64,000 nucleotides of DNA, from contig CAWINF010000001.1 in NCBI GenBank assembly GCA_963837495.1, positions 841,843 through 905,842 of the forward strand, in the 5' to 3' direction. Source of the DNA: an uncultured Acidobacteriota bacterium. GTDB taxonomy: Bacteria; Acidobacteriota; Thermoanaerobaculia; UBA5066; Gp7-AA6. This document shows positions 38,330-60,632 of this stretch, piece by piece. The position numbers and the translations under genes were made by a program. The stretch's first letter is position 1. The number at the start of each line of letters is the position of its first letter. The notes under the pieces were generated by a model, which was not told where the DNA came from, did no database searches, and saw only the letters and a program-made list of their open reading frames with translations.

Positions 38330-41826
<3,497 letters not shown>

Positions 41827-41830
<4 letters not shown>

Positions 41831-42435
41831 GGCGAGAAGAGGTTGATGAACTTCACTTCATCGCGCCGATCGAAAACGTTGCTTCGATCCTCACGATGGG
41901 CATTCTTTCGAACGAGCGGGCTCGAAGCATCTCGCATCTCTCGATAGCCATGGAGGAGGTTCAAGTGCGGCGCGACATGAAGACGGTCCCCGGGGGTCGA
42001 CCACTTCACGAGTACGCCAATCTGTACTTCACCGCTCGTAACCCGATGATGTTCAAGAAGCAGGCGATCCACGCGGAGACTTGCGTTCTACGTGTCGACC
42101 CATGCGTCCTCGATCTGTCAGGCGTCGTCGTAACCGACAGGAACGCATCACGCGGATGGGCTCGCTTTCGCCCCCCCGCAGAAGGACTCGGAGCCCTGAA
42201 ACACGAAGAGATCTTCGCGGATGATTGGCGCCATCCCGGAGATCCGGTTGCCTACGACCGCCATAAGGGCCTTAAGTGCGCCGAAGTTCTTGTGCCAGAC
42301 CGGGTTGAGCCAAGTCTGATTCGCGGAGCGTACGTTTCCTCCGACGAGGCATTTCGACGTCTGTCCGATGCTTGTCCGGCGCTCGACGTTCGGAAGTACC
42401 CTCACCTTTTCTTCTTAGAAGGTGGCCTCGAATGA
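41827..42435 (+). CDS. darT: DarT-like ssDNA ADP-ribosyltransferase toxin (DUF4433); ATGA overlap with the helicase stop
   Basis: ELHFIAPIENVASILTMGILSN...VPGGRPLHEYANLYFTARNPMMFK matches the DarT N-terminal consensus. Confidence 0.65.
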
Positions 42436-43562
42436 CCGTTCAGACTCTTGTGGGTAATCTTTTCGACTCCTCTGCGCAGACGCTTGTCAACACCGTAAAC
42501 ACGGTTGGGGTGATGGGCAAAGGAATCGCCCTTGAGTTCAGGAAGCGGTTCCCGGAGATGCACCAGGATTATGTGGCACGCTGCGCCGCCGGTAAAATCC
42601 ACCTCGGCGAGCCATACCTCTTCAAGGCGCTGCTGCCTCCGTGGATCCTCAACTTCCCGACGAAGGAGCACTGGCGGTCAGTCTCGCGGGTGGCCGACAT
42701 CGTGCGCGGATTGGAGTACCTCGAAAGGAATTACAAGGCCTGGGGAATCACATCACTGGCCGTTCCGCCTCTCGGCTGCGGTCTCGGGCAGCTCGAATGG
42801 CGGGTCGTTGGGCCTACACTCTTTCGTCACCTAAGCCGTCTCGATATTCCGGTTGAACTCTTCGCGCCGCATGGCACACCAGCCGAACAGCTCGACCCGC
42901 TGTTTTTGGGCATCGTCCCTCAGGCGCAAGCAGCCACTACGAACGGTCCCGAACAGGCTCGTATAGATGCAGCGTCCGTAGCTCTCGCGGAGATTCTCGC
43001 CCGGATTGCGAGGGAGCCCTACCATCGCCCGGTGGGTCGAACGATTTTTCAGAAGATTGCTTTCTTCGCGACGGAAGAGGGGATCCCAACGCGGCTTGAC
43101 TTTGCGCCCGAGAGTTATGGGCCGTTCTCCACAAGCGTTAAGCCCCTGCTCACGAGGCTCGTCAACAATGGTCTGCTCGTGGAGACCAAGCTCGGGCGGA
43201 TGTTCCGCCTGGATCCAGGTCCCACTTTCACAGATGCCTGCAAGACATTCGCGGACGCGATTTCGCAGTGGGAACCTGCAATCGAACGGATCGCGGACCT
43301 CTTTTTGAGAATGACTACTGAGCAGGCTGAAATCGCAGCGACCGTCTTTTACGCGGCCCGCCATCTGGTCGGCAATGGCGAGACGCCTCCGACGGAGCGC
43401 GACGTTCTTTCCGCGGTAAAGCAATGGAAGCGCAGGCGGAGTCCCCAGCTACGTGACGAGGATTTGGCTCTGGCAATCCGGAACCTTAACGTTCTTGGCT
43501 GGTTAAACACGCGGGCCAGCACGGATCTCCCGCTTCCTGAGGCCGCTTCTATTGGAGCATAA
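42432..43562 (+). CDS. darG: DarG-like macrodomain antitoxin; ATGA overlap with darT
   Basis: N-terminal macrodomain VNTVNTVGVMGKGIALEFRKRFP; ~240-aa C-terminal domain. Confidence 0.65.
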   Translation: MTVQTLVGNLFDSSAQTLVNTVNTVGVMGKGIALEFRKRFPEMHQDYVARCAAGKIHLGEPYLFKALLPPWILNFPTKEHWRSVSRVADIVRGLEYLERNYKAWGITSLAVPPLGCGLGQLEWRVVGPTLFRHLSRLDIPVELFAPHGTPAEQLDPLFLGIVPQAQAATTNGPEQARIDAASVALAEILARIAREPYHRPVGRTIFQKIAFFATEEGIPTRLDFAPESYGPFSTSVKPLLTRLVNNGLLVETKLGRMFRLDPGPTFTDACKTFADAISQWEPAIERIADLFLRMTTEQAEIAATVFYAARHLVGNGETPPTERDVLSAVKQWKRRRSPQLRDEDLALAIRNLNVLGWLNTRASTDLPLPEAASIGA

Positions 43563-43616
43563 CGGGTTACCTGCTACTACCAAACGCCGAAGCGTGGCGG
43601 AGTACGCTGAGTCGCT

Positions 43617-44414
43617 GTGGTGAAAAAGGCGGTGCCGCCAGACCCCCGTCCAGCGCAGCTCTCGGTCGGCGAGATTCGCACCGCCATACCGAAGCTCGAG
43701 CGCCGCCTTGCAGAGGTGGAAGCCCTTGAACCCGATGGTATCCAAGGACGACCTGACCCGGCCTTTAGGGCAGTTGAAGACAAGATCGACAGTACGTTGG
43801 TCGAGGTTTTCGGACCTGACACGCTCGACTATAGGCGATTCACCGTCGGGCCTCTGTACAAGGGAGCCCTCTACAGGGGCGGCATGCCCATTGCGGAGGT
43901 CCGCGAGGGGTATCGGCGAGGGAAGGATCAGGCGGCTGGGAAACTCAAAACAGCAATCGAGATTCTGAGAGAAAAGCTCTTGGCTGTCCTGGGCACAGCT
44001 AACTCCGGAGCCGCGACGCCCCCGTCGCTCGATGCGCTCGATCTCGATCCGCAACTGAGAAATCGCGTTGCCCCGCTCTTTAGGGATGGTCATTATGCCA
44101 ACGCGATCGAGGACGCTTGCAAGGTTCTCGACCTCCTCGTCAAGTTGCGCAGCGGGCGAGAAGATCTGTCCGGGACGGAGTTAATGCAGGCAGTCTTCTC
44201 CGAGAGAAACCCGGTGCTTAGGTTCAACGACGGTGTGATGGAGACCGACAGAAGTGAGCAAAAGGGCATGATGTTCCTGTACTCGGGTACGATGTTGGCC
44301 CTGCGCAACCCCCGAGCCCACGGCTTTCAACCGGACGACGCCGCGACAGCCATCCAAGTTATCTCCATCATTAATTTCCTTATCGGTGCTCTGGGTAGGA
44401 CGACGAAAGCCTAG
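43617..44414 (+). CDS. HEPN-domain protein (TIGR02391-like); GTG start
   Basis: C-terminal FRDGHYANAIEDACKVLDLLV...MMFLYSGTMLALRNPRAHG (Rx4H motif). Confidence 0.5.
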   Translation: MVKKAVPPDPRPAQLSVGEIRTAIPKLERRLAEVEALEPDGIQGRPDPAFRAVEDKIDSTLVEVFGPDTLDYRRFTVGPLYKGALYRGGMPIAEVREGYRRGKDQAAGKLKTAIEILREKLLAVLGTANSGAATPPSLDALDLDPQLRNRVAPLFRDGHYANAIEDACKVLDLLVKLRSGREDLSGTELMQAVFSERNPVLRFNDGVMETDRSEQKGMMFLYSGTMLALRNPRAHGFQPDDAATAIQVISIINFLIGALGRTTKA

Positions 44415-44419
44415 TCAGG

Positions 44420-47296
44420 ATGGCATCGAAGAAGCTCATCGAGGTCGCCCTGCCCCTGCCCGAGATCAACGATGCCTCGGCTTACGACAAGAGACCTGGA
44501 ATCGGGCCTCACCCTAAGGGAATCCACCACTGGTGGGCGCGCCTCCCGCTGCCAACGGCGCGGGCGGTGCTCTTTGCGTCGGTGGTGGACGACCCGAGCG
44601 GCCATCCGGAGAAGTGGCTGACGGAAGAAGCGCAGGACGCCGAGCGCGAGCGGCTTTTCGAAATCATACGCCGCATGATGGGTAAGAAGCTGCATACGCA
44701 TCCGGAGGTGTACGCCGAAGCGCGTGCCGAGATGCTCGATGACACCGGTGGAAAGCTTCCCGTCGCGTTCGACCCGTTCGCTGGTGGCGGCTCGATCCCG
44801 CTCGAGGCCAATCGTCTCGGCTTCGAGCCCCATGCCGGCGATCTCAACCCCGTAGCGGTGCTCCTCAACAAGTGCAGTCTCGAGATCGCCCCTCACTGGG
44901 CCAGCCGAGCACCAGTCAATCCGGAGGACCGCGCGCAGATCGGCGGAACAGAATCATGGCCCGGAACGCGTGGGCTTGCGGCCGACGTTCGTTACTACGG
45001 TAGGCTCATCCAAGACCGGGCGCGGCAGAAGATCGGGCACCTCTACCCGAAAGTCCGATTGCCGAGGGCGGAAGGGGGCGGGGAAGCAAACGTGATCGCC
45101 TGGATTTGGGCGCGCACCGTGGCGAGCCCCGATCCGTCGGCGCGTGGTGCCCACGTACCGCTAGTCAGTACTTTCTGGCTCTCAGCTAAGAAGGGAATGG
45201 AGGCGCGGCTCGAACCGATCGTGGACAGGGACGCGCGCATCTGGCGGTTCGCTGTGCGCCTGGGGATTCCCACCGAATGCACCGGGAAGCGCCCAGGGCA
45301 GAAGTGGAAGGATCACGCCAAAGAGTGCATCGCGTGCGCGGCGGTGGTATTTGGAACGAAGACAGGAAGAGCGCAGTTTCGCTGCCTCCTGACAGGCGCG
45401 CCGATCTCCGACGATCACATCAAGGCCGAGGGAGTTGCAGGCCGGCTCGGCAGTGTCTTGCTTGCGATCGTGGCGGAGGGCAAACGGGGACGCGTGTATC
45501 TCGATAGCTCCGATGCGCAAGTCGAGGCAGCAAGTGTCACGGCTCCCGTCGGGCAGGTGGAAGAACCGCTGGCCGAAGATCCCCGGAACATCTGGTGCGT
45601 CGGATATGGTCTCGATCGCTTCCGCCGGCTCTTTACCCCTCGCCAACTCACAGCAATGGTGACACTGAGTGACCTGGTGAAGGCGATCGCGGCGGACGTG
45701 AGGCGCGACGCGAAGGCGACGCTCGCCTCCGACGAGGTCCAGGCTTACGGCCTCGCGGTTACGACGTTTCTGGCGCTGGCGGTAGACCGGTGCGCAGACT
45801 TCAATAACACCTTATGTCGGTGGGATCAAAGCGCCGCCGGTCAGAGAGTAAAGAACCTATTCGGGCGGCAGGCGATCCCCATGTTGTGGGATTTCGCCGA
45901 GGCCAATACCCTCGGAGAGAAGTCTGTCTGCTGGGCGAACGCAGTAGATGTCACCGCCGACGCGATCGGCGCGCTCGCGTCTTCTGAGCGAATGCGAGGA
46001 ACCGCCCGCCAGATCGACGCTGCCACAGGGGCCAATGGGCTCAAGAACCTTCTCGTTAGCACCGATCCTCCCTACTACGACAACATCAGCTACGCTGGGC
46101 TCTCGGACTTCTTCTACGTCTGGCTCCGGCGCACGATCGGTGACCTTTACCCGGATCTCTTCAGCACAGTGCTTGTGCCGAAGGTGCCGGAACTCACGGC
46201 CGCGCCCGAACGCTTCGGCGGCGACAAGCAAAAGGCCAAGGAGCACTTCGAATCTGGCTTTCGCAAGGCCTTCACCGCGCTGCGCGAGAAGATGGATCCG
46301 CGATTTCCTCTTACCGTTTACTACGCCTTCAAGCAGGCCGACGAGGAAGGCGGAGGCGACGACGAGGATGCCGAGGGCGTTCCGCGCGTGGACCTTACCA
46401 CTGGCTGGGAGACGCTCCTCGAGGCGCTCATCGCGAGCGGCTTCCAGATCACGGCTACGTGGCCCGTGCGTGCGTCGCAGGCCTGGCGCATGCGCGCGAT
46501 GGACTCCAACGCCCTGGCCTCGTACATCGTGCTCGCCTGTCGCCCACGCAACGATGACGTCCCGCAGCCCGACCGCCGCTCGTTCGTTGCCGAACTCAAG
46601 CGGGAGTTGCCCATTGCGCTACGCCATCTTCAACAGGGCAACATCTCGCCGGTCGACTTTGCTCAGGCTGCCATTGGGCCGGGGATGGCAATCTACTCGC
46701 GATACAGTCAAATACTCGAGAGCAGTGGCAAAGCGATGAAAGTTCGTGGGGCGCTCTCGCTCATCAACCAAACTCTCACGGAGGTGCTGTCGGAACAGGA
46801 TGACGACTTCGACGCCGACACTCGGTGGGCGCTGGCGTGGTTCGATCAATCGGGATTCGACGCCGGAGAGTACGGCGCTGCAGAGACGCTCTCCAAGGCC
46901 AAGAATACAAGCGTCCAGGGCATGAAGGACGCCGGCATTCTCGACAAGAAGTCTCCGGGCGGAAAAGTTCGTCTGCTCAAACCGAGCGAACTGCGCGAGG
47001 ACTGGGACCCAGGCACCGACCCGCGCCTCACGGCATGGGAAGTCGTTCACCACCTGATCCGTGCTCTGGAGGAGGGCGGCGAGGCTGCGGCGGCAAAACT
47101 GGTCGCCAAACTCGGGAGCAAGGCCGAAGTTGCCCGCGAACTTGCCTACCGGCTCTACGCGATCTGCGAGCGGAAGAAACGCGCCGCCGAAGCGCTTTCC
47201 TACAATGCACTCGTCCAGAGCTGGCCCGAGATCACTCGTCTCGCTCGCGAGAGCCGCAAATCGAAGCCAGAGCAAGCCGCAATGTTCGGAGAGTAA
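44420..47296 (+). CDS. DUF1156-family N6-adenine DNA methyltransferase with inserted Zn ribbon
   Basis: N-terminal KLIEVALPLPEINDASAYDKRPGIGPHPKGIHHWWARLPL; FDPFAGGGS (motif I), LVSTDPPYYDNISY (motif IV, DPPY), CIACAA...C Zn ribbon. Confidence 0.7.
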   Translation: MASKKLIEVALPLPEINDASAYDKRPGIGPHPKGIHHWWARLPLPTARAVLFASVVDDPSGHPEKWLTEEAQDAERERLFEIIRRMMGKKLHTHPEVYAEARAEMLDDTGGKLPVAFDPFAGGGSIPLEANRLGFEPHAGDLNPVAVLLNKCSLEIAPHWASRAPVNPEDRAQIGGTESWPGTRGLAADVRYYGRLIQDRARQKIGHLYPKVRLPRAEGGGEANVIAWIWARTVASPDPSARGAHVPLVSTFWLSAKKGMEARLEPIVDRDARIWRFAVRLGIPTECTGKRPGQKWKDHAKECIACAAVVFGTKTGRAQFRCLLTGAPISDDHIKAEGVAGRLGSVLLAIVAEGKRGRVYLDSSDAQVEAASVTAPVGQVEEPLAEDPRNIWCVGYGLDRFRRLFTPRQLTAMVTLSDLVKAIAADVRRDAKATLASDEVQAYGLAVTTFLALAVDRCADFNNTLCRWDQSAAGQRVKNLFGRQAIPMLWDFAEANTLGEKSVCWANAVDVTADAIGALASSERMRGTARQIDAATGANGLKNLLVSTDPPYYDNISYAGLSDFFYVWLRRTIGDLYPDLFSTVLVPKVPELTAAPERFGGDKQKAKEHFESGFRKAFTALREKMDPRFPLTVYYAFKQADEEGGGDDEDAEGVPRVDLTTGWETLLEALIASGFQITATWPVRASQAWRMRAMDSNALASYIVLACRPRNDDVPQPDRRSFVAELKRELPIALRHLQQGNISPVDFAQAAIGPGMAIYSRYSQILESSGKAMKVRGALSLINQTLTEVLSEQDDDFDADTRWALAWFDQSGFDAGEYGAAETLSKAKNTSVQGMKDAGILDKKSPGGKVRLLKPSELREDWDPGTDPRLTAWEVVHHLIRALEEGGEAAAAKLVAKLGSKAEVARELAYRLYAICERKKRAAEALSYNALVQSWPEITRLARESRKSKPEQAAMFGE

Positions 47297-47299
47297 CTC

Positions 47300-50200
47300 A
47301 TGGCGATCACGAATCAGGAGCGCGTCGGTAAAGCGATGGAGCTACTCAAGGATGGGCTGGCTCCCTTCGTTGAGCGCGAGCTGAAGGCGCATCACGCTCA
47401 GAGCTGGTTTGAGGAAGCAAAGGCAGCAGTGAGCGAGATGCAAACAAGCTTCCTTGGAAGCGCCTCGGCGCCGAAGTGGGACGTTGGCTCGCTCCTGGTG
47501 GTCATGTGGAATCAGTGGAACCTCGTCTTCCGAAAGACCCTGGGCCAGGCCGAGCGAACTCTCGTGAGCGAGCTTCGCGACGCGCGCAAACGGTGGGCCC
47601 ACCAGGACGCCATCTCTGGCGACGACGCTTACCGGACTCTTGACTCAGCCAGCCGGCTGCTGACGGCCGTCTCCGCGCCGCAGTCGGACGAACTCGAGAA
47701 GATGAAGATGGAGCTCCTGCGCGTCCGATTCGACGAGCAGGTGCGAAGCGAAAAGCGGAAGAGCGCCGGGGCGGCCATCGAGAGTGCAGCGGCTGGGACC
47801 TTGAAGCCCTGGCGGGAGGTCGTCACGCCTCACAAGGACGTGGCTAGCGGCCGCTATCAGCAGGCGGAGTTCGCAGCCGACCTCTGGCAAGTACACCTCG
47901 GTGAGGGGACCGACGAATACCGGGATCCAGTCGAATTCTTCCGGCGGACGTACCTCACTGAAAGCCTCAAGGGGCTGCTCGTCGGGGCGGTGCAGCGAAT
48001 GGCCGGGCACGGCGGCGACCCCGTGGTGCAGCTCCAAACGAACTTTGGCGGCGGCAAGACCCACTCGATGCTCGCGCTCTACCACCTGTTTTCCAAGGCA
48101 ACTCTCAGCCAGTTGCCTGGCGCGGGTGCGATTCTGAATGAGGCCGGGGTCTCGAAGCTTCCCTCGGTTAATCGCGTCGTGCTCGTGGGTAATAAGATCT
48201 CGCCGGGAAACCCGGTCACGAAGCCCGACGGGACCGTCGTTCGGACGCTGTGGGGTGAGCTTGCGTGGCAGCTTGGCTTCGCGGCCGGCGGGGCCAAGGA
48301 AGCGAAGAAGGCTTTCCAGCGCGTCGCGCCGGACGACGAGAGGGCTACCAGCCCCGGTGACGCGCTGCGGGAGCTGATGAACGAGTACGGGCCGTGCCTG
48401 ATTCTGATCGACGAGTGGGTGGCCTACGCGCGGCAGCTCCACGATCAGAGCGACCTGCCGGCCGGAAGTTTCGAAACCCACTTCAGCTTTGCCCAGGTGC
48501 TTACGGAATCCGCGAAGGCGGCGAAGAAGTGCCTGCTGGTGATCAGCTTGCCCGCCTCGGACACCACGGGCTCTCCCCACGCGGTGGCCGACGACGTCGA
48601 GGTGGGCGGTGAACGAGGGCGCGCGGCGCTTGATCGCCTGCGCAATGCCGTAGGCCGTATCGAGGCGTCTTGGCGGCCGGCCAGCGCGGAGGAGAGTTTC
48701 GAGATTGTTCGGCGGCGACTTTTCGAGCCACTCGTTGAGAAGGCACAATTTGTGGCACGGGACACAGTGGCCCGGGCCTTCTACGACCTCTACCGGACGC
48801 AACATCAGGAATTCCCGCCCGAGTGCCGCGATTCGGACTACGAGAATCGGCTCAAGGCTGCCTATCCCATACATCCCGAGGTCTTCGACCGGCTCTACAA
48901 CGATTGGTCCACGCTGGTGAAGTTCCAGCGCACGCGCGGCGTGCTGCGGCTGATGGCGGCCGTGATCCACAGCCTGTGGCAGAAGGGCGACAGGAACCCG
49001 CTGATTCTTCCCGCCAACATCTCCATCGACGATCCGCGCGTCCAGTTCGAGCTCACGCGCTACCTCTCGGACAACTGGGTGCCCGTGATTGAGAAGGACG
49101 TGGACGGCCCTAATGTGCTGCCACTCCGGCTGGATGGCGAGGTGCCCAACCTCGGCAAGTACGCCGCCTGCCGCCGCGTGGCGCGGACGATCTACCTCGG
49201 GTCGGCACCCACCGCCACCGCCGCCCATCGGGGCATCGAGGACCGACGAATCAAACTTGGCTGCGTGATGCCAGGCGAGTCGCCCGCCGTCTTCGGCGAT
49301 GCTCTGCGGCGGCTCGCCGGCGCGGCCACGTACCTCTATCAGGATGGCCCGCGCTACTGGTACTCGACACAGCCGACGGTTACTAAGCTCGCGGAGGATC
49401 GCGCCGAGCAACTCAAACGCGATCCGGACAAGGTCGTGAAGGAGCTGGAGTCGCGCATCAGCGAGGACGTCACCGAGGACAGGCGAGAGAAGACAAGCAG
49501 AAAAGGCGCCTTCAGCCGCGTCCACCCGCTGCCGCACAGCGGCCAGGATGTGCCCGACGACATGGATGCCCGCCTCGTGATCCTCGACATCGACCATCCC
49601 TACGGCAAGGAGCCGGGCAATCCCGCTGAAGCCCAGGCAAATGCGATTCTCGAGTCCCGTGGCAACACGCCGCGCCTGTTCCGCAACACGTTGGTCTTCC
49701 TGGCTGTTGACCAGGCACGCCTGCAGGACCTCGACGAGGCGGCACGTCGTTACCTCGCCTGGGAATCCATCTTGGCCGAGAAGGTGACGCTGGATCTCTC
49801 GCCGCATCAAGTGAAACAGGCCGAGACCCAGAGGACGTCAGCCGACGGCGCCGTGACCGCTCGACTCCCCGAAGCGTACCAGTGGCTCCTGATTCCCACG
49901 CAGAGCACCCCGCAATCGCCGGTAAAGTGGCAGGCAGTCCGCCTCACAGGCCAGGACGCGCTAGCGGCAAGGGCCAGCAAGAAGCTCCGAGGCGACGATT
50001 CCCTCGTAACCGGGCTAGGCGCGACCGTTCTACGAAAATACCTCGACGAGGTTCCCCTCTGGCGTGGCGATCACGTCGACATCAGACAGCTCGGCGAAGA
50101 CTTCGCGCGCTATCTCTACCTTCCCCGAATCAAGGACACCTCCGTGCTGATCGGCGCGATCCGTAGTGGGCTCAACCTGATCACCTGGGAGAAGGACTCC

Positions 50201-50677
50201 TTCGGCTACGCCGACAGCTTCGACGAGGCGACCGGCCGATACCGAGGCCTCCAAGTCGGCCGAAACGTCTCCATCTCGGACGAGGACTCTCACGGTCTAC
50301 TCGTCAAGCCCGAAGTTGCCGCTCGACAGCTAGCCCAGGAAACCGCCGCCTCTTCCTACCCCGCAGGCGCCGCCCCCACAGCTCTTCAAGCCAACGGTCC
50401 CGCAGCGACGGCGGCACCCCTCACCGCTCCCGCACCTCGCCTCCTCACGCGCTTCCACGGCTCCGTCCACCTTGACGCCTCCCGCCTAGGCCGAGACGCG
50501 GGCAGAATCGCTGAAGAAATCGTCCAACACCTAGCGGCCTTGGTAGGCTCCGACGTCGAAGTGACGTTGGAAATCCACGCCGCCGTCCCCACCGGCACCC
50601 CCGACCAGGTAGTCCGCACCGTATCCGAAAACTGCCGCACCTTGAGATTCACAGACTTTGGGTTTGAGGAAGATTAG
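47300..50677 (+). CDS. DUF499-family large P-loop ATPase
   Basis: NFGGGKTHSMLALYHLF Walker A; LILIDEWVAY Walker B; 1125 aa. Confidence 0.6.
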   Translation: MAITNQERVGKAMELLKDGLAPFVERELKAHHAQSWFEEAKAAVSEMQTSFLGSASAPKWDVGSLLVVMWNQWNLVFRKTLGQAERTLVSELRDARKRWAHQDAISGDDAYRTLDSASRLLTAVSAPQSDELEKMKMELLRVRFDEQVRSEKRKSAGAAIESAAAGTLKPWREVVTPHKDVASGRYQQAEFAADLWQVHLGEGTDEYRDPVEFFRRTYLTESLKGLLVGAVQRMAGHGGDPVVQLQTNFGGGKTHSMLALYHLFSKATLSQLPGAGAILNEAGVSKLPSVNRVVLVGNKISPGNPVTKPDGTVVRTLWGELAWQLGFAAGGAKEAKKAFQRVAPDDERATSPGDALRELMNEYGPCLILIDEWVAYARQLHDQSDLPAGSFETHFSFAQVLTESAKAAKKCLLVISLPASDTTGSPHAVADDVEVGGERGRAALDRLRNAVGRIEASWRPASAEESFEIVRRRLFEPLVEKAQFVARDTVARAFYDLYRTQHQEFPPECRDSDYENRLKAAYPIHPEVFDRLYNDWSTLVKFQRTRGVLRLMAAVIHSLWQKGDRNPLILPANISIDDPRVQFELTRYLSDNWVPVIEKDVDGPNVLPLRLDGEVPNLGKYAACRRVARTIYLGSAPTATAAHRGIEDRRIKLGCVMPGESPAVFGDALRRLAGAATYLYQDGPRYWYSTQPTVTKLAEDRAEQLKRDPDKVVKELESRISEDVTEDRREKTSRKGAFSRVHPLPHSGQDVPDDMDARLVILDIDHPYGKEPGNPAEAQANAILESRGNTPRLFRNTLVFLAVDQARLQDLDEAARRYLAWESILAEKVTLDLSPHQVKQAETQRTSADGAVTARLPEAYQWLLIPTQSTPQSPVKWQAVRLTGQDALAARASKKLRGDDSLVTGLGATVLRKYLDEVPLWRGDHVDIRQLGEDFARYLYLPRIKDTSVLIGAIRSGLNLITWEKDSFGYADSFDEATGRYRGLQVGRNVSISDEDSHGLLVKPEVAARQLAQETAASSYPAGAAPTALQANGPAATAAPLTAPAPRLLTRFHGSVHLDASRLGRDAGRIAEEIVQHLAALVGSDVEVTLEIHAAVPTGTPDQVVRTVSENCRTLRFTDFGFEED

Positions 50678-50733: not shown

Positions 50734-52866
50734 ATGAGAATCTCAACCATCCTCGAAAAGATCGACGAGAAGCAGCTGTTCGTTCCCGCGTTTCAGCGCG
50801 AATACGTCTGGAAGCGCGAGGATGCGAAGTCGCTCATCGATTCGCTCATAAAGGAGTACCCGACGGGCACCATGCTGACCTGGGAGACGGCACACCCGCC
50901 AGAACTCAAGGGTCCGCACAAATACAACGAGAGACAGGGCGCCGTGCGCCTGCTCTTGGACGGCCAGCAGCGTGTCACAACTCTGTACATGCTCATGCGC
51001 GGGGAAATACCTGCGTATTACACGCTCGCGGAGATCATGACCGACACCCGCGGCCTGTATGTCAACCTGGCGACCCTCGAGCTTTCTTATTATATTAAGA
51101 CGAGAATGGAGACCGACCCCTACTGGCAGAATATCACCGACGTATTTCAGGGAAAAGTCAGCGCCTTTGACCTCCAGGCCTCCTTTGCCACGCTCAACAT
51201 AATGCTTAGCATGGAAGAGTTGAAGCAGCTCAACGAGAAGATTAACGTCGTCACACGGATTAAGGACAGAGAGTTCCCCGAACAGACGATACCCGTCAAG
51301 GCACACATCAGGCAAGCTATCGACATTTTCTACAAGGTCAATGCAAGCGGCGTCTCCCTTACCGACGCCGAACTTGCGTTAGCACAGATCTCAGGGTTCT
51401 GGCCCCAAGCTCGCGATCTCTTCAAGGCTAAGCTCGCCAAGCTCGCGAATGAGGGATTCGGCTTTCAGCTGGATTTCCTCGTCTATGTCTTGTTGGGTTG
51501 TCTGCACCACATGGGCTCCGACATGCGAAAGCTACACGATGAGGAGAAGAAGACAGATTTGCAAGCAGCATGGGAGCGGCTGGATACACAGGTTCTGGAC
51601 TACGTAGTGAATCTGTTGAGAGCGACCGCTTACGTCGACCACATTTCTGAGATCAACTCACCCTATGCGCTCGTGCCCATCATCGTATATTGCTTTGACA
51701 GAATCGGAAAGAACCTCTCCGATCTAGAGATTCGTAAGATGGTTAAGTGGTTCTATTACACTCAGATCCGAACCAGATATGTCAGCCAGTTGCCGCAAAA
51801 GCTCGACCGGGACCTCCGAACGCTGGTGGAATCGCAACAGCCGTTTGATGACCTGCTGCAGGTGATTGCTGAGGAACGACCCCTCCAAGTGTCGCCCTCG
51901 GAGTTTGTGGGCCGGGCGACGGGGCACCCGCTTTTCGGAATGATGCGCTGGTACCTCAAGAGCCGTGGCGCGGTCTGCCTGACCACCGGCCTCAGCCTAC
52001 GGAAGAATATGGGCAAGAAGTACCAGCTTGAACTGGACCATATCTTTCCCTTCTCCCGGCTCAAGAAGGCAGGTTACGGCAAGGGCAACCGTGTGAAGTA
52101 CGCGCTGGCACAGGAATTCACCAACCGGGCTCTTCTCACTCAGGTCGCCAACCGCTCGAAGGCGGCGATGGACGCCGCGGTGTACCTGGCCGGCGTGAAG
52201 AAGCAGTTTCCTAAGGCCCTCGAGTTGCAGTGCATTCCCGAGAACCCGGAGTTGTGGAAGATTGAGCGCTATGAGGGCTTTCTCGAGGCTCGACGCGAGA
52301 TTCTGGCATCGCATTTCAATGAGTTCCTCAACACGCTGACCGACACCGAAGAAACCGGCGCCCCAGCGACCCTCGAGGACCTGATCTCCGAGGGCGAGAG
52401 CAACGAACTGGAGTTCAAGGCGACCTTGCGCTGGGATCTCGAGAAAGGCGAAGTCAGTCACAAGATGGAGGGTGCCATCGTCAAGGCAGTCGCAGCGTTT
52501 GCCAATTCCCATGGTGGCACGCTACTGATTGGTGTGGACAACGATGGCCAGGCGGTTGGCCTGGAGCACGATTATACTTCGCTCGGTGACGCTGATAAGG
52601 ACAAGTTCGAGCGATGTCTTTACAGCCTCCTCTACCAGAGTGTCGGTAAAAGCTTCGTAACCACGAAGGTTACAGCCAGATTTCATGATGTTGCCGGAGC
52701 GGAGGTCTGCCAAGTGGATGTCGCGAAGGCCAAGGAGCCGATCGTCGTGGCGTCGAAAGACAAGAACGGCGTGGCCGTGGAGAAGTTCTACGTGCGTAGC
52801 GGAAACGCATCCCAAGAGATTCCGCTGAGCCAGATGAATGCATACCTAAAGGAACGGTTCAGCTGA
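50734..52866 (+). CDS. GmrSD-like type IV restriction enzyme: DUF262 (ParB-like) + DUF1524 (His-Me finger) + C-terminal AlbA_2/Schlafen-like domain
   Basis: LFVPAFQREYVWKRED...LLDGQQRVTTL; ...QLELDHIFPFS...NRALLTQVANRSK; C-terminal ESNELEFKATLRWD...AFANSHGGTLLIGVDNDGQ. Confidence 0.65.
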   Translation: MRISTILEKIDEKQLFVPAFQREYVWKREDAKSLIDSLIKEYPTGTMLTWETAHPPELKGPHKYNERQGAVRLLLDGQQRVTTLYMLMRGEIPAYYTLAEIMTDTRGLYVNLATLELSYYIKTRMETDPYWQNITDVFQGKVSAFDLQASFATLNIMLSMEELKQLNEKINVVTRIKDREFPEQTIPVKAHIRQAIDIFYKVNASGVSLTDAELALAQISGFWPQARDLFKAKLAKLANEGFGFQLDFLVYVLLGCLHHMGSDMRKLHDEEKKTDLQAAWERLDTQVLDYVVNLLRATAYVDHISEINSPYALVPIIVYCFDRIGKNLSDLEIRKMVKWFYYTQIRTRYVSQLPQKLDRDLRTLVESQQPFDDLLQVIAEERPLQVSPSEFVGRATGHPLFGMMRWYLKSRGAVCLTTGLSLRKNMGKKYQLELDHIFPFSRLKKAGYGKGNRVKYALAQEFTNRALLTQVANRSKAAMDAAVYLAGVKKQFPKALELQCIPENPELWKIERYEGFLEARREILASHFNEFLNTLTDTEETGAPATLEDLISEGESNELEFKATLRWDLEKGEVSHKMEGAIVKAVAAFANSHGGTLLIGVDNDGQAVGLEHDYTSLGDADKDKFERCLYSLLYQSVGKSFVTTKVTARFHDVAGAEVCQVDVAKAKEPIVVASKDKNGVAVEKFYVRSGNASQEIPLSQMNAYLKERFS

Positions 52867-52873: not shown

Positions 52874-53542
52874 ATGCGACGCCTCTTCACGTACTGCATA
52901 CCGTGGGACGAGGGAGGCGCTCCGAACCCTTTTTGGGGAATCTGCACGCTCGCGATCTGCAAGCCAGCCATTCGACGTACGGCACGCGTCGGCGACTGGG
53001 TTGCTGGAACCGGCTCCAAATACTCTCGAGGTAGCGACCTAAGTGGCCGCCTAGTCTACGCCATGGAAGTCTCCTCCATCATGACCCTTGCAGAGTACGA
53101 TGCCTGGACGCGGGACCATGCACCGAAGAAGATTCCTGATCTCAAGAAGAGGGATCTGCGAAGGCGCGTCGGCGACTCGATCTACGATTTCTCGGCTGGC
53201 CAGCCGCAGCAACGGCCAGGAGTCCATGGGAAAGGAAACATCAGGACAGATCTCAGCGGCGAATACGTACTGCTCTCCTTGAATTTCTACTATTTCGGCG
53301 ATCAAGCCGTCGTTGTGCCGGACTACCTCAGCCCCATCGTTCACCAGGCCCAGGGGCACAAGGTCAACGCGAACGGACCGTACGTGGAGCGGTTCCTCAA
53401 GTGGCTGAAAGCCCAGGGTTACCCTCGCAACTGCCTCTTTGGCAAACCTACACTGCTCGAAAGGGTCGCAACTGGCCTTGCTCAGCCTGCTCGAGCCCGG
53501 CGTCGCTGTGCTGAAGCCGACGAAGGGGCCCCAGAGTCATGA
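52874..53542 (+). CDS. Nmad2-like (nucleotide-modification-associated domain 2) protein; assignment from memory of the family N-terminal signature
   Basis: MRRLFTYCIPWDEGGAPNPFWGICTLAICKPAIRRTARVGDWVAGTGS. Confidence 0.4.
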   Translation: MRRLFTYCIPWDEGGAPNPFWGICTLAICKPAIRRTARVGDWVAGTGSKYSRGSDLSGRLVYAMEVSSIMTLAEYDAWTRDHAPKKIPDLKKRDLRRRVGDSIYDFSAGQPQQRPGVHGKGNIRTDLSGEYVLLSLNFYYFGDQAVVVPDYLSPIVHQAQGHKVNANGPYVERFLKWLKAQGYPRNCLFGKPTLLERVATGLAQPARARRRCAEADEGAPES

Positions 53543-54735
53543 ATCCTGTGGACCGTGGCGCACCCGGTGCTGCGATGGGTTCCATTGCCAGGGCCTCGCT
53601 CGTTCAAGAGGTCTACCGTTGTACCCACTGCGTTCCGCTGGTCTTACCCTTCGCCACTTGCACGGATGCAGGCCGCTTCTTCCGGTTTCCGCCGGTGATC
53701 GGAGCTCCAGGCGCCGCAGAAGTCCTTTTTGTGGGAATTAACCCCCGTGTTTCTCCCTCCAATCTTCCTTTGCACACCGCGCTGATGCGGGACATTTCCG
53801 CTTTCCAGGAACTCGCAGCTAATAGCTATCGCGAGAGGGACTACATCGGACCGCAAGGGCAGGAGAGTCACTATTCCCTTCATCTCTGGATTGCGAGTCA
53901 ACTGTTCCCCGGTCGTCGTTTCGCTTCCGTTGCCGCGGTAACCGAGTTGTTCTTCTGCGCGTCAGAATCTTCCGCAAGACTCCCGGTCGAGCAGAGCCCT
54001 TGCGCGGACAAGTATCTTGGCAGAGTACTAGCTTCGACGCGCCCTAAGCTGGTCGTTGCCGTCGGCAGCAGGGTTGCGAACTACTTGGCTGGGAGGTTTC
54101 CGAGGCAGGCACAGTACGCAATCGCGGCCTGGGGAGACCACGGTCGAGCGCCAATCATTCCGGTGCCGCATCCTAACTCTAGGGGCGAGAAGCACTCAAG
54201 AACGTTGAGGGCAGTAGAAGTTGCCCGGGAATATCTAATTTCGGGGAATGTGCCAGCCCTGCCCGCGGTATCGGCAACTACAGCGCGAGAACCGAGACGG
54301 TTATCGGCGTCGTTGAGAGGTCACGCTGGGCCCCGCGATGCCGGGCGGCGCGACGGGAGAGTGGATGCAACGCCAGCCGCACCACGCGCTAGCCGTTCTG
54401 AGCTCGCTCGGCTCGTGCAAGACCCCGAGCCCGGGAGCATACAGAGGGATTGGACCGGCAACGACAAGAGCGCCAGGAACCACAACGGCATTGTAGACCT
54501 GAGAGAGAGTCCGCTGAGGTTGCGCCTTTCCTGGAAGAGGAACCCAGATGACCAAGCCAAATTCATCGGGGTCTTTGATCTAGACCTTCCACGCCTTCTT
54601 GCTGCCAACTACATTAGAGTTGAGGGAAATCGGCCAAGTGCCGTTCGTCTTCGATTCTGGCATGGCTACGACGATGTCATCTACATCCAGGTCAATAGCC
54701 AGACCAGAGGTTTGCCGCTAGGGCGAATCGTGTAG
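53539..54735 (+). CDS. Uracil-DNA-glycosylase-superfamily-like N-terminal domain (~220 aa) fused to an unknown ~170-aa C-terminal domain; ATGA overlap with the Nmad2-like gene
   Basis: VLFVGINPRVSP (motif A position), ELFFCASESS, KLVVAVGSRVANYL, IIPVPHPNSRGE (motif B position). Confidence 0.4.
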   Translation: MNPVDRGAPGAAMGSIARASLVQEVYRCTHCVPLVLPFATCTDAGRFFRFPPVIGAPGAAEVLFVGINPRVSPSNLPLHTALMRDISAFQELAANSYRERDYIGPQGQESHYSLHLWIASQLFPGRRFASVAAVTELFFCASESSARLPVEQSPCADKYLGRVLASTRPKLVVAVGSRVANYLAGRFPRQAQYAIAAWGDHGRAPIIPVPHPNSRGEKHSRTLRAVEVAREYLISGNVPALPAVSATTAREPRRLSASLRGHAGPRDAGRRDGRVDATPAAPRASRSELARLVQDPEPGSIQRDWTGNDKSARNHNGIVDLRESPLRLRLSWKRNPDDQAKFIGVFDLDLPRLLAANYIRVEGNRPSAVRLRFWHGYDDVIYIQVNSQTRGLPLGRIV

Positions 54736-54761
54736 CGACGGCTACGGCGGGCCGTAGTGAG

Positions 54762-54850
54762 AAGGGGTCAGCCGTGCGCCTCGTGTATTTTCTGATTCCG
54801 GGCGACAGGCGATCCTGTCATCGTTTCCGGCGCCGGCGGGCGGGGAGAGG
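54762..54850. repeat. Partial copy (3-prime-of-relE end) of the ~360-bp relE repeat
   Basis: GGGGTCAGCCGTGCGCCTCGTGTATTTTCTGATTCCGGGCGACAGG... Confidence 0.6.
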
Positions 54851-54934
54851 TCGGCTAGGGGGGTCAGTCTTGTACGATGGTACTTTGCGTGGGGTTTCCG
54901 GGTCGACCGTCATTTCAATCGGCCTGGGAGAAGA

Positions 54935-55295
54935 AGGGTCAGCCGTGCGCTTCGTGTATTTCCTGATTCCGGGCGACAGGGTCATCGTTTCCGGCGCCGG
55001 CGGGCGGGCAGAGGTGTCTTCTGCTTCCTGGAAGAAGGGGCCAGGCCCGAGGCGGACGACCTTTCGCGCGAGCTCGTAGAGGCCATCATGCGCACCTTCG
55101 CGCCGGAGGCCGGCAGCCACGACGTAAACCATCCGGGCGGCAGGATCAACCGAAGAGATCAGGCGGTATCGCCGGCCAACCACCCGAAGGCTTCCAAAGC
55201 CCATGAGGTCTTCCCGGAGCGGCTTTCTCTGCCTTTCAGGATCACCCTGCAGACGTTTGGACCGATAAGGGGTCAGCCGTCCGCTTCGTGCACTG
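54935..55295. repeat. Full copy of the ~360-bp repeat carrying 5-prime-truncated relE on the minus strand, bounded by AAGGGGTCAGCCGT(G/C)CGCTTCGTG direct repeats
   Basis: Encodes ...RLQGDPERQRKPLREDLMGFGSLRVVGRRYRLISSVDPAARMVYVVAAGLRREGAHD... Confidence 0.6.
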
Positions 55296-55305
55296 TCGCC
55301 AATTG

Positions 55306-55599
55306 CTAAGAGCGGCGACGCGGCTTGGAGCGTTTTCGCCGCCCGCGTGGTTTCTTGATGCCGTAGAGCTCTCGAACCTCAGCAATCGTAGCTGACCGAT
55401 TCTTGCGGCGGCGGTCCTCGATCATTTCCCAGAAGCGGGGATTGCCCATCGTCAGGAGGTCTTCCAAATCCTCCCCCTCGACCCCGATAACCAGGGCGGC
55501 GGGCTTTCCGTGCTTTGTAATGAGCACGCGATCCTGCTGAGCCTTGGCGATGTACTCCGAGAGAGACGCTTTCGCATCGCGAACCGCTACGACTTTCAT
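55306..55599 (-). CDS. Phd/YefM-family antitoxin
   Basis: MKVVAVRDAKASLSEYIAKAQQDRVLITKHGKPAALVIGVEGEDLEDLL. Confidence 0.7.
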   Translation of the reverse strand: MKVVAVRDAKASLSEYIAKAQQDRVLITKHGKPAALVIGVEGEDLEDLLTMGNPRFWEMIEDRRRKNRSATIAEVRELYGIKKPRGRRKRSKPRRRS

Positions 55600-55892
55600 A
55601 AAATCTCCTCCGTTCTCTTTCTTTCTTTCCGCCGGACGGAACGAACCGTCACGGTCCGTCCCGATTCATCCACGTCGTAGAAAACCCGCAGGTCACCCAC
55701 GCGAAGCTGCCAGACCGGCCGCACCTGTTCCCACGGAGGCGCCAGACCGCTGAGCATCTTCCTCCTTCTGCTTGCCTCAGCAGGTTCGTGAGCCAGCTGC
55801 TTTTCGATGGCGTCGAGAACACGTTTCCTCTCGGAGGCTCGAAGCTCCCCGATTTCCGCAACCGCATCCTGATCGAGCCGGATCGCGAACAT
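55596..55892 (-). CDS. ParE/RelE-family toxin (complete); stop overlaps Phd start (ATGA); TATAAT 13 nt upstream of ATG
   Basis: MFAIRLDQDAVAEIGEL...WQLRVGDLRVFYDVDESGRTVTVRSVRRKE. Confidence 0.6.
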   Translation of the reverse strand: MFAIRLDQDAVAEIGELRASERKRVLDAIEKQLAHEPAEASRRRKMLSGLAPPWEQVRPVWQLRVGDLRVFYDVDESGRTVTVRSVRRKERKRTEEIL

Positions 55893-56049
55893 CGTGACTA
55901 CAATTATAGTCTCTAGATCCAGCGCTGCCAACCCGTGCAAATAGAGAGATCCGAGGCGGGGGAAGAACTGGGGTCGGGCTTGAATATCGGGTGTTGAGCC
56001 GAAACAATTCCGACTCCACCTTAGCCGTTGGGTGGTGTTTCGGGTCGAT

Positions 56050-56441
56050 CGGGAAGAAGGGGTCAGCCGTGCGCTTCGTGTATTTCCTGATTCCGGGCGA
56101 CAGGCAATCCAGTCATCGTTTCCGGCGCCGGCGGGCGGGGAGAGGTGTCTTCTGCTTCTTGGAAGCAGGGGCCAGGCCGAGTTGGACGATCTTCGCGCGA
56201 GCTCGTAGACGTCATCGTGCGCACCTTCGCGCCGCAGGCCGGCAGCCACGACGTAAACCAACCGGGCGGCAGGATCAACCGAACAGATCAGGCGGTATCG
56301 CTGGCCAACCACCCGAAGGCTTCCAAAGCCCATGAGGTCTTCCCGGAGCGGCTTTCCCTGCTTCTCAGGATCACCCTGCAGACGTTTGGACGTGTCGAAG
56401 AGTTGCTGCCGTACTCGTCGGTCGGCAACGCCGGCGAGCAT
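56050..56441 (-). pseudogene. Repeat copy with near-full-length relE-like gene (MLAGVADRRVRQQLFDTSKRLQGDPEKQGKPLRED...) whose 3-prime end is frameshifted and fuses into the downstream ORF
   Basis: Compared with other copies, a 1-nt indel near ...YELARK. Confidence 0.5.
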
Positions 56442-56639
56442 CTTGGACGCGGTCGTCGTCCAGAGGACCTCGCAGGCGGGAGTGGGGGAAGAGCGGGGTC
56501 AATCGTCTATCGGTGTATTACGGATGCATTAGCCGGAGCTGGCGGTGCTGATTCGCCGGGCCATCGTGACCAGGTGCAGGGCGAAGGCAGTTCGAAGGGT
56601 CGATCCGCGCGACCTGGGCCCCGGGTCAGTTGTCGCTGA

Positions 56640-56771
56640 TGCGCGGAAGCCGCGATCGGATGGCGTTTCTGACTCTCTTCGCAATCCGGACCGCCTCATC
56701 GGCCTCCCGGCGTGTGATCGGTTCCCAGTCTCCCGGATAGCGAGCCTCGACCGCGTAGCGCTTCAGAAGTC
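56640..56771 (-). pseudogene. HEPN-toxin C-terminal fragment (...LLKRYAVEARYPGDWEPITRREADEAVRIAKRV)
   Basis: Motif only; 5-prime part replaced by the adjacent parE gene. Confidence 0.35.
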
Positions 56772-57077
56772 CTACCTCTTGAGGCGATCGGTCCAGTAGC
56801 GGGGCCGGCGACTTTGGTGGCCGACGGCCAGGATGCGGATCATGTCCGATGCGATCAGGTAATAGAGGTTGTAGGGAAACCGACGGAGCACCTTGCGTCG
56901 GACGCCCCTTCGATGGACTACCGGAGAGGCTTCCGGGTGATCCAGGATGAACCGGATGCTTCTACTGACTTCCTCCAGGAAGCTCCGAGCAATCGGAGAA
57001 GGCGCCTCGTCTCGGTAGTAACGTCCGGCTTCAAGAAGGTCGGCCCTGGCGTCGGGATGAAACTGCCAGCTACGCAA
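56772..57077 (-). CDS. ParE-family toxin
   Basis: ...VLRRFPYNLYYLIASDMIRILAVGHQSRRP. Confidence 0.7.
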   Translation of the reverse strand: MRSWQFHPDARADLLEAGRYYRDEAPSPIARSFLEEVSRSIRFILDHPEASPVVHRRGVRRKVLRRFPYNLYYLIASDMIRILAVGHQSRRPRYWTDRLKR

Positions 57078-57306
57078 GCAGGTCGCGGAACTCCTTCATG
57101 ACTTTGTCGCCAGGAATTCCCTTAACCTTGCCCTGTTCCCACTCTTCCAATCGCCGTTCTGTCTCCTCGAGCCACAGCGCCTCGAATTCTGCCGGCGACA
57201 GCTTCTCTTCCTCCTCATCCAGACTTCGGAGCAGCCGGCCGGCGAGCCTGGCGCGCTCTTTGTGGCCGAGCTTCAAAGCAGCGGCAACGATCTCTTCGGT
57301 GGTCAC
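57070..57306 (-). CDS. Addiction-module antitoxin, TIGR02574-like; GTG start
   Basis: VTTEEIVAAALKLGHKERARLAGRLLRSL...EFEALWLEETERRLEEWEQGKVKGIPGDKV. Confidence 0.6.
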   Translation of the reverse strand: MTTEEIVAAALKLGHKERARLAGRLLRSLDEEEEKLSPAEFEALWLEETERRLEEWEQGKVKGIPGDKVMKEFRDLLA

Positions 57307-57329
57307 GAGCCAATGATACCTCGAGCTCC

Positions 57330-57530
57330 ACAAGCAGGTCCGGGGCCAGGCCGAGGCGGACGACCTTTCGCGCCAGCTCGTAGAGGTCATCGTGCGCACC
57401 TTCGTGCCGCAGGCCGGCAGCCACGACGTAAACCAACCGGGCGGGAGGATCAACCGAACAGATCAGGCGGTATCGCTGGCCAACCACCCGAAGGCTTCCA
57501 AAGCCCATGAGGTCTTCCCGGGATGAAATG
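57330..57530. repeat. Partial copy of the relE repeat
   Basis: Aligns to the central 200 bp of the 54935-55295 copy. Confidence 0.55.
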
Positions 57531-57679
57531 GGATCGGTCCTGAATTCATGCATTATTACGGTGGGCAGCCGTCAGAACTCGGAAAGGTTCTCATGACTCT
57601 ACTTCTTCGAGCTGAAAGGGTATCGAGCGTGTACACAATTGTTGACACACATGAGATACCGTGGCAGAATCGCTTCGAG

Positions 57680-57946
57680 ATGAAGACGACGACGATCCGG
57701 GAGTTCCGAAAGGATGTCAGCGAGTTGCTGCGCGGCAGGGATGCTGTCCTGGTGACCCGGCATGGCAAGCCCGCCGGTGTCCTCTACCCCCTCACCGATC
57801 CGCGCAAACTGCCGATGAAGGTTCGCCGCAAGCTTTACCTGGAGCTCTCCGAAGGAATCGCCAGGCAGCTCAAGACCAAAGGGATAGCCGAAGAGCAGCT
57901 CCAGCATGACTTCGAGGATTTTAAGAAGCGTCGCCGCCGACAGTAA
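57680..57946 (+). CDS. Phd/YefM-like antitoxin
   Basis: MKTTTIREFRKDVSELLRGRDAVLVTRHGKPAGVLYPL. Confidence 0.6.
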   Translation: MKTTTIREFRKDVSELLRGRDAVLVTRHGKPAGVLYPLTDPRKLPMKVRRKLYLELSEGIARQLKTKGIAEEQLQHDFEDFKKRRRRQ

Positions 57947-58328: not shown

Positions 58329-58418
58329 TGGTCAGAGGCGCCTTCCGTAGAGCGAGATGTCGTCGTGTTTGACAACGTCGACTGCGCCGGGATGAAGGTC
58401 AACGACGCGGTGCGGCAT
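58329..58418 (-). pseudogene. Truncated parE (MPHRVVDLHPGAVDVVKHDDISLYGRRL*), cut where the vapBC-like module begins
   Basis: First 10 codons identical to the intact parE at 61194. Confidence 0.45.
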
Positions 58419-58668: not shown

Positions 58669-58674
58669 TTCTCG

Positions 58675-59030: not shown

Positions 59031-59045
59031 GGGAGTGGTGCCGTG

Positions 59046-59480: not shown

Positions 59481-59490
59481 ATCGCTCGGG

Positions 59491-60560: not shown

Positions 60561-60632
60561 GAAGCTGGGTCAGTCTCGCATACTGGTACTTTGAGAAAGA
60601 ATGAGGGAAATGAGCGACTCAAAGCTACCGGC

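Follow-up and report, generated by a model that had tools for sequence, protein, structure and literature searches.

We have analysed a 64,000-nucleotide (nt) stretch of DNA, hereafter the window, from an uncultured Acidobacteriota bacterium (Thermoanaerobaculia; UBA5066; Gp7-AA6; GenBank assembly GCA_963837495.1, contig CAWINF010000001.1, positions 841,843 to 905,842). In it, two adjoining genes, one encoding a protein with 'nucleotide modification associated domain 2' (Nmad2) and the other a protein resembling uracil-DNA glycosylases (UDGs), close a defence island built around an Hma system. The reading that we favour, while giving it slightly less than an even chance, is that the pair represents independently mobile, modification-directed cargo which, together with the BrxU/GmrSD-type nuclease encoded just upstream, would provide the Hma island with an arm against modified DNA. 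It is supported by the spacing of the genes (a 7-nt gap followed by a 4-nt overlap), by their lower GC content, by the nature of Hma systems as hotspots for defence genes and by the fusions in which the C-terminal domain of the UDG-like protein recurs. The genes concerned, in window coordinates, are as follows.

52874..53542, forward strand: Nmad2 gene (222 amino acids (aa); open reading frame (ORF) and Pfam)
53539..54735, forward strand: UDG-like gene (398 aa; glycosylase domain, linker and C-terminal domain)
50734..52866, forward strand: GmrSD/BrxU-type (HEC-05) type IV restriction nuclease with C-terminal SLFN_AlbA_2 (710 aa; Pfam, PADLOC)
38330..50677, forward strand: Hma system (HmaA 38330-41830, HmaB 44420-47296, HmaC 47300-50677)
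41827-43562, embedded in Hma: DarT/DarG (PADLOC, DarT 1e-32 and DarG 7e-88)
43617-44414, embedded in Hma: Ymh-type HEPN gene (Pfam)

The genes form a tight, co-oriented string that runs from Hma through the BrxU/GmrSD-type nuclease to Nmad2 and the UDG-like gene, the latter two being its last cistrons. The Nmad2 start codon, with GAGGAA as its Shine-Dalgarno sequence, lies 7 nt past the stop of the nuclease gene, and the Nmad2 stop and UDG-like start are overlapped in the 4 nt ATGA. An alternative in-frame ATG exists at codon 13 of the UDG-like gene (53575) and would make the overlap a 32-nt gap; homologues begin near this codon in the family alignment, and it could be the true start. A consensus scan of the forward strand between 50734 and 54735 found no promoter- or terminator-like sites. 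The GC content of the nuclease, Nmad2 and UDG-like genes is 0.55-0.59, versus 0.63-0.64 for the Hma genes.

HmaA, HmaB and HmaC were each recognised by PADLOC with E=0, and the Pfam families DUF1156, DUF499, HEPN_Swt1 and Hypoth_Ymh were found in the Hma region. Hma systems are known hotspots of embedded defence genes (bioRxiv 10.1101/2024.01.29.577857), and window positions 41827-44414 are an instance of such genes nested within the system; HmaC itself begins with a Swt1-like HEPN domain (47300-47680). The GmrSD-type neighbour directly upstream of the pair, already proposed in a preceding sequence-only reading of this DNA, was confirmed with GmrSD_N (E=3e-29) and SLFN_AlbA_2 (E=2e-17) in Pfam and with HEC-05 (E=1e-43) in PADLOC. 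Its translation contains the DGQQR and LDHIFP motifs, and thereby the combination of DUF262 with a His-Me (DHxxP) motif; GmrSD_C was not detected in it by Pfam. HEC-05 is a BrxU-like GmrSD protein, for which a role in covering for modified DNA that escapes the primary system has been proposed (bioRxiv 10.1101/2024.01.29.577857).

Based on its sequence, the 222-aa protein is an unambiguous member of the Nmad2 family. The match to the Pfam hidden Markov model (HMM) PF18753 scored 182.7 bits (cut-off 26.1; E=7.5e-54) over profile positions 1-194 of 200, which upholds the sequence-only call; the ORFs, the 4-nt overlap and the motifs quoted with it are likewise all present in the translations. The protein carries the signature D-x-G-x-APNPF ... 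C-x-L-x-x-CKP-x-IR ... GDW, the core of which is invariant or at least 90% conserved among 39 close and 11 distant homologues. Y7, D12, APNP16-19, C24, C29, K30 and R34 are invariant even across clades with only ~30% identity, as are D41, G100-D101, Y104, Q113, H118, D126 and Y140. Homologues numbered more than 1,275, the best 120 listed being 49-65% identical to the window protein, and their sources are as diverse as a Hodarchaeota metagenome-assembled genome (MAG), a gammaproteobacterium, Polyangium and Aquimarina. Homologues with 33-44% identity also occur in IMG/VR (L125, L126, L109-L120), among the contigs being two fragments of giant-virus MAGs and a group of related viral contigs of 40-73 kb. 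Neither Nmad2 nor the UDG-like protein has a model in PADLOC, PHROGs or NCBIfam, and neither matched any of the 50,697 phage genomes in GenBank.

No solved structure related in sequence to Nmad2 was found. The predicted model comprises a PUA-like beta-barrel core, C-terminal helices and a low-confidence tail, and the structures that match it best are those of readers of bases in nucleic acids, including the EVE proteins 2ar1, PH1033 and THYN1, the latter bound to DNA with 5-methylcytosine; ATP sulfurylase is among the weak matches. Foldseek placed mostly the same families on top, below significance (best E=0.056). We assign Nmad2, with moderate confidence and on the strength of the model, to the PUA-like fold class (YTH/EVE/ASCH-type), and not to the YTH, EVE or ASCH families as such. 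The invariant polar residues look like those of an enzyme rather than of a passive reader: given the invariance of its Asp, Cys, Lys, Arg and His set, Nmad2 may process a non-standard base or nucleotide in addition to binding it.

The UDG-like protein consists of three parts, which are listed below with their characteristic motifs.

53596..54246, forward strand: UDG-fold glycosylase domain (aa ~20-236)
53620..53631, forward strand: C28-x2-C31, first half of the predicted [4Fe-4S] ligands, nearly invariant in the family alignment
53734..53748, forward strand: motif A/catalytic loop G66-I-N68-P-R70 (GINPR), invariant in 19/19 members
53956..54003, forward strand: C140...C155 (C-x14-C), second half of the predicted Fe-S ligands, both invariant
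54169..54177, forward strand: motif B H211-P-N213 (HPN), invariant
54247..54390, forward strand: Pro/Arg/Ala-rich linker, predicted to be disordered (predicted local distance difference test score (pLDDT) <50 for aa 242-282)
54391..54732, forward strand: C-terminal beta-rich domain, aa 285-398, with the signature WTGND...HH...LSWK...RLRF.H...IYIQ

The UDG assignment made from the sequence alone holds for the fold and for motifs A and B, which were recovered in the structure model and in the alignment, and falls short in Pfam, where PF03167 (UDG superfamily) scored 23.0 bits, below the gathering threshold of 24.3. Some homologues pass this threshold (e.g. P0016, 28.2 bits), and the modelled alpha/beta fold, in combination with motif A and the His-Pro of motif B, is consistent with membership of the superfamily. 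The family is rare: a word-indexed search of 5.8 billion clusters retrieved 19 relatives, the family alignment has 19 members, and no member was found in IMG/VR. The linker is not conserved among the homologues.

The nearest named structures are those of iron-sulfur UDGs of family 4 (Thermotoga maritima 1l9g, Thermus thermophilus 1ui0 and S. tokodaii 4zbx) and family 5 (2d3y) and of UdgX (6ail). Figures against solved structures were 13.5 for the T. maritima family-4 UDG, 12.2 for UdgX and 11.8 for the T. thermophilus family-5 enzyme, and lower for TDG (9.5), SMUG1 (9.4) and MUG (8.9). The family profile matches 4zbx and 1ui0, and the sequence similarity to iron-sulfur UDGs is weak, with E values of 1e-3 or worse. 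In the HMMER alignments, C28 and C31 fall on the CKKC of 4zbx and C155 on a Cys of 1ui0, so that the four-cysteine pattern of family 4 (C-x2-C ... C-x14-17-C) is present in the sequence as C28, C31, C140 and C155. The family-4 cysteines aligned here are ligands of a [4Fe-4S] cluster, and the window protein is likely to bind such a cluster as well. Its HPN motif B aligns with the HPA of family-4 UDGs. The catalytic loop is of another kind: GINPG is the loop of MUG/TDG, which GINPR resembles, and the iron-sulfur UDGs possess GE(A/G)PG or GLAPA in place of this Asn-containing, MUG/TDG/SMUG-like loop. As GINPR is unlike the GE(A/G)PG of family 4, we do not file the protein there; judged by its sequence, it belongs to a distinct UDG family with a predicted iron-sulfur scaffold and an Asn-type catalytic loop. 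It further differs from the iron-sulfur UDGs in having HPN as motif B, in the added linker and ~110-aa domain and in its defence-island setting.

The C-terminal domain was modelled as beta-rich, with pLDDT 60-87. It had been called novel, and indeed neither a Pfam match nor a PDB sequence match was obtained; yet it is by no means confined to this locus, since an exhaustive HMMER search recovered it in 232 representative clusters at E<=1e-3. The nearest relatives are stand-alone proteins of ~123 aa with up to 65% identity. Among the 189 members collected, 132 are at most 140 aa long and 39 exceed 200 aa, the domain being C-terminal in 31 of these long members and N-terminal in 8. It is fused to HEPN_Swt1 (E=3.5e-19; P0143, 287 aa) and, with weaker matches, to HNH and to NucS_C/Mrr_cat (PD-(D/E)XK-like) domains, and the N-terminal parts of two further proteins resemble, by eye, another UDG-type family ('HAPHPNARGG', P0193). 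Stand-alone copies in defence islands adjoin pPIWI-RE and TIR genes or lie near GmrSD_N-HNH and SRAP genes. Its recurrent fusion with effectors that cleave nucleic acids suggests a targeting or regulatory module, and the occurrence of HEPN_Swt1 in both HmaC and P0143 hints at a link between the domain and Hma/DUF499-type systems.

Another possible explanation is that the UDG-like protein serves in housekeeping repair, as a divergent glycosylase of the family-4 type acting on uracil or hypoxanthine, next to which Nmad2 would be an unrelated neighbour. The nearest solved structures are those of repair UDGs and some homologues are located among metabolic genes, as this explanation would have it. 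We nevertheless regard it as quite improbable: the family is very rare and has a patchy distribution, the gene ends a defence island and has a GC content below that of the Hma genes, the catalytic loop is unlike that of family 4, and the C-terminal domain is common to HEPN, HNH and PD-(D/E)XK effectors.

To see how far the two genes belong together, we compared the 80 closest metagenome loci of Nmad2 and one genome locus (at least 47% identity), 58 of the 81 having at least 700 nt of sequence downstream of Nmad2. Six-frame HMM searches detected neither the UDG-like gene nor its C-terminal domain near Nmad2 in any of these 81 loci, and conversely none of the seven distinct contexts of UDG-like homologues had Nmad2 nearby. 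Among the immediate neighbours of Nmad2 (n=113), BLAST clustering, Pfam and PADLOC revealed no recurrent family, the commonest being TIR with three occurrences. UDG-like homologues are accompanied by 218-aa and 377-aa proteins without an assigned family, by an SNF2/DUF3427 helicase with a 74-aa ORF, by a conserved 193-aa protein, a resolvase, a NACHT-like protein or a radical SAM enzyme. The homologues P0015-P0018 (L003-L009) have another domain at the C-terminus (RYGWKPFQRP...), which is conserved among them, and the gene after P0015, like that after P0016, encodes the conserved 193-aa protein, which has no Pfam family. From these differing C-terminal domains and neighbours, it appears that the glycosylase core swaps its C-terminal modules and partners. 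Two of the partners were considered as a hidden Nmad2 and rejected, namely the 218-aa protein (BLASTP E=12; hhalign probability <1%) and the 193-aa protein (hhalign probability <1%); the 377-aa partner (L001) was rejected as a UDG duplicate, and no relative of it was found in the PDB. The Nmad2 and UDG-like genes are, in these two families, not a conserved unit. The specific coupling put forward in the sequence-only reading, for which co-localisation of homologues elsewhere had been set beforehand as the yardstick, is therefore not borne out, and because the neighbours of Nmad2 are non-recurrent and the partners of the UDG-like gene are varied, we read both genes as independently mobile.

A link between Nmad2 and UDGs is nevertheless real at the level of the superfamily, where it involves another UDG family. 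On plasmids, distant Nmad2 genes (29-37% identity to that of the window) show translational coupling with a ThsB-like TIR gene, and at least 9 of the 17 plasmid records with Nmad2 have a MazG/MazG_C-UDG pair within 5 kb of it, whether in tandem, in divergent orientation or two genes apart; the chance expectation for shared Nmad2-UDG records among 72,556 plasmids is ~0.01. The link is also present in four IMG/VR contigs, so that 13 or more loci, plasmid or viral, show it overall. In one of these contigs (L128, 1088-2363), an apparently frameshifted Nmad2 gene, the ORF of which ends at 1495 with the similarity running on to 1653, is followed directly by the MazG-type UDG gene with no MazG in between. 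The MazG-linked UDG is 17% identical to the window protein, lacks the Fe-S cysteines and has a different set of motifs; it was found on 45 plasmids, of which at least nine also carry Nmad2, and its constant partner is MazG. DefensePredictor (Science 2026, PMC13092281) lists a predicted, untested MazG/MazG-C system, the figure legend of which includes NMAD and UDG, as well as a further predicted NMAD-containing system, and Nmad2 scores as defensive there (PMC13092281). The pairing, which had been taken for uncharacterised, was thus already flagged at the superfamily level (DefensePredictor, PMC13092281), with a UDG family other than the one in the window.

A functional precedent comes from antiviral glycosylases. 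Brig1, Brig2 and Brig3 are UDG-fold glycosylases with experimentally shown antiviral activity, in which abasic sites block phage replication; the bases proposed or shown to be excised are glucosyl-5-hydroxymethylcytosine (glucosyl-5hmC), 5hmC and aminoethyl-U. They have the UDG fold and the defence-island or mobile setting in common with the window protein. Compared by description only, Brig3 has a catalytic Asp (D127), whereas the window protein has an Asn loop, predicted Fe-S ligands and an extra C-terminal domain. The ORF of BapA, an ASCH-like beta-barrel protein, overlaps brig3, and BapA strips glucose from glucosyl-5hmC, upon which Brig3 excises the base (bioRxiv 10.64898/2026.02.25.707755). 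By analogy, a PUA-like protein working alongside a defence enzyme of the UDG fold has a close functional precedent in brig3-bapA. Relative to the window, where Nmad2 precedes the UDG-like gene, the two genes stand in reverse order; BapA, again compared by description only, is two-barrelled, is longer than 252 aa and was not called Nmad2 by its authors, whereas a single barrel is predicted for the 222-aa Nmad2.

On this precedent one could envisage an obligate two-component system of the Brig3-BapA kind, in which Nmad2 and the UDG-like protein would strip and excise, or sense and excise, only jointly. The overlapping ORFs, the predicted PUA-like fold of Nmad2 beside the ASCH-like barrel of BapA and the proximity (<=5 kb) of Nmad2 to UDG-fold genes on the plasmids and IMG/VR contigs described above, far above chance, would all fit such a system. 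The distribution does not: co-inheritance of the Brig3-BapA type is absent from the 81 Nmad2 loci and from the seven UDG-like contexts, the UDG that does recur is of the other family and keeps to MazG rather than Nmad2, and the authors who described the two-barrelled BapA did not identify it as Nmad2. We consider an obligate system fairly unlikely.

Other clades of Nmad2 have suggested a further possibility, in which the protein would have free (modified) nucleotides, or a signal derived from nucleotides, as its target, the glycosylase next to it being incidental. Apart from their coupling to ThsB-like TIR genes, these clades have as companions MazG/MazG_C pyrophosphatase-kinase, thymidylate-synthase-like, deoxynucleoside monophosphate (dNMP) kinase and 5-hydroxymethyldeoxyuridine (5-hmdU)-kinase-like genes; thymidylate-synthase-like and nucleotide-kinase genes were also seen at other Nmad2 loci in our data. 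The validated Escherichia coli system DS-4 consists of thymidylate-synthase-like, dNMP kinase, 5-hmdU-kinase-like, TIR and Nmad2 genes (PMC13092281). PUA-like folds bind small nucleotides too, which the weak match to ATP sulfurylase would accommodate. For the window protein we hold this possibility to be distinctly unlikely: the top structural matches of Nmad2 are readers of bases in nucleic acids, and its own clade lacks TIR, MazG and thymidylate synthase partners. The Nmad2 proteins of the TIR-Nmad2-MazG/MazG_C-UDG module and of DS-4 are bona fide members of the family (Pfam E about 1e-70), as is that of the window, to which they are 29-37% identical; unlike both systems, the window pair has no adjoining TIR, MazG, thymidylate synthase or kinase genes. 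The TIR-Nmad2 plasmid loci L104-L106 and L108 contain several further TIR-domain genes, L105 and L106 also a long TIR protein paired with a SLOG (LD_cluster3) protein, and L106 in addition a SIR2 gene; they are dense defence islands of nicotinamide adenine dinucleotide (NAD)/nucleotide signalling.

Returning to the cargo reading of the window pair, we infer activities, substrates, Fe-S binding and cooperation from the observed gene arrangement, family and fold assignments and distribution in the following way. Hma is methylase-based and is presumed to act on unmodified foreign DNA, and the cargo genes would complement it. The UDG-like enzyme is predicted to flip out and excise a non-canonical base of invading DNA, probably a 5-substituted pyrimidine as the most plausible substrate, since the Asn-type loop of MUG, TDG and SMUG tolerates such bases. 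By analogy with Brig1, Brig2 and Brig3, the abasic sites left behind would block phage replication. The C-terminal domain probably targets the enzyme to nucleic acid or regulates it there. The PUA-like barrel of Nmad2, as modelled, would hold a flipped non-standard base in a putative pocket and may process the base or nucleotide; like BapA for Brig3, Nmad2 may widen the range of the glycosylase, in a cooperation that would be facultative. The logic of attacking modified DNA is shared with the type IV enzymes, such as the EVE-HNH protein VcaM4I, McrB with its N-domains, PD-T4-3 and GmrSD/BrxU, the readers of which belong, going by the model, to the same PUA-like fold class as Nmad2. In contrast to these enzymes, Nmad2 is a separate protein with no fused nuclease, and the effector proposed for the window is a glycosylase, not a nuclease.

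Several observations weigh against this reading. The Pfam score of the UDG-like protein and the Foldseek scores of Nmad2 are below threshold. The UDG-like homologues P0015 and P0016 are located among metabolic genes and not in defence islands. Three stand-alone ~123-aa homologues of the C-terminal domain with 52-54% identity (L101, L102, L103; 5001-5375) lie between zwf (encoding glucose-6-phosphate dehydrogenase) and opcA, in a pentose-phosphate operon on Acidobacteriota contigs, which is an unexpected, non-defence context for a domain that is fused to nucleases elsewhere. The MazG, thymidylate synthase and kinase partners of other Nmad2 clades hint at nucleotides, not DNA. Finally, DS-4 has an effect of ~0.9 log on phage lambda (PMC13092281); as lambda has no hypermodified bases, Nmad2 systems need not be specific for modified DNA.

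The historical name of Nmad, 'nucleotide modification associated', and the occurrence of Nmad2 elsewhere with thymidylate-synthase-like and kinase genes of hypermodification pathways may also bring to mind a module for the modification of self DNA, as a writer or by base exchange. This we rate as highly improbable. None of the genes flanking the pair in the window is biosynthetic or encodes a transferase or transglycosylase, the methylase of the island belongs to Hma, and neither protein matched any of the GenBank phage genomes. UDG folds are known from excision enzymes, not from writers. Of the base-modification, excision or sensing role suggested initially, the handling of non-canonical bases remains the best reading, and nothing in the analysis points to a writer.

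A more elaborate scheme, unlikely as we judge it, would combine these elements: Nmad2 would be a new catalytic PUA-like branch that flips hypermodified bases and de-modifies or marks them, and the downstream protein a new iron-sulfur glycosylase steered by a new reader domain at its C-terminus, the two together providing a two-step strip-and-excise immunity that arose independently of Brig3-BapA and is possibly directed at a phage modification outside the reach of known defences.

The regions on both sides of the island contain further systems. Upstream of Hma (28756-37186), a 1080-aa protein with a Cas4-like nuclease C-terminus is encoded by a gene overlapped by the ORF of a 1195-aa UvrD/GajB-like helicase (31785-35372), an AddAB-like pair that is followed by the candidate defence pair PDC-M70A/B at 35400-37186. 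Downstream, an array of type II toxin-antitoxin cassettes (54754-61700) begins 30 nt past the UDG-like stop and comprises ParE/Phd, ParE/Unstab_antitox, Phd/PIN_2, DUF5615/DUF433 and ParE with an unidentified partner. The cassettes are spaced by a repeated element of 130-300 nt that includes fragments of a RelE/ParE-like ORF. The 26-nt core of this repeat, GGGTCAGCCGTGCGCTTCGTGTATTT, is present in 6 copies versus 0 expected by chance, all of them after position 54765, and no copy was found upstream of the GmrSD or Nmad2 genes. The array points to an integron-like or CALIN-like structure, with no integrase seen. The idea that the Nmad2/UDG-like pair is itself one cassette of the array was ruled out, because all copies of the repeat lie downstream of the pair.

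The locus belongs among known kinds, that is, antiviral UDG-fold glycosylases and Nmad2-containing defence modules, and does not call for a new category. For Nmad2, an orphan domain that is now found in the validated DS-4 and in predicted systems, the PUA-like placement gives a testable hypothesis of its role. The UDG-like family, with its family-4-type iron-sulfur scaffold, MUG/TDG-type Asn loop and extra domain, is a candidate source of a new specificity among antiviral glycosylases, and glycosylases of modified bases are useful as reagents for mapping such bases. The C-terminal domain is widespread and recurs in fusions with effectors that cleave nucleic acids; it is a candidate for a new module of targeting or regulation in conflict systems.

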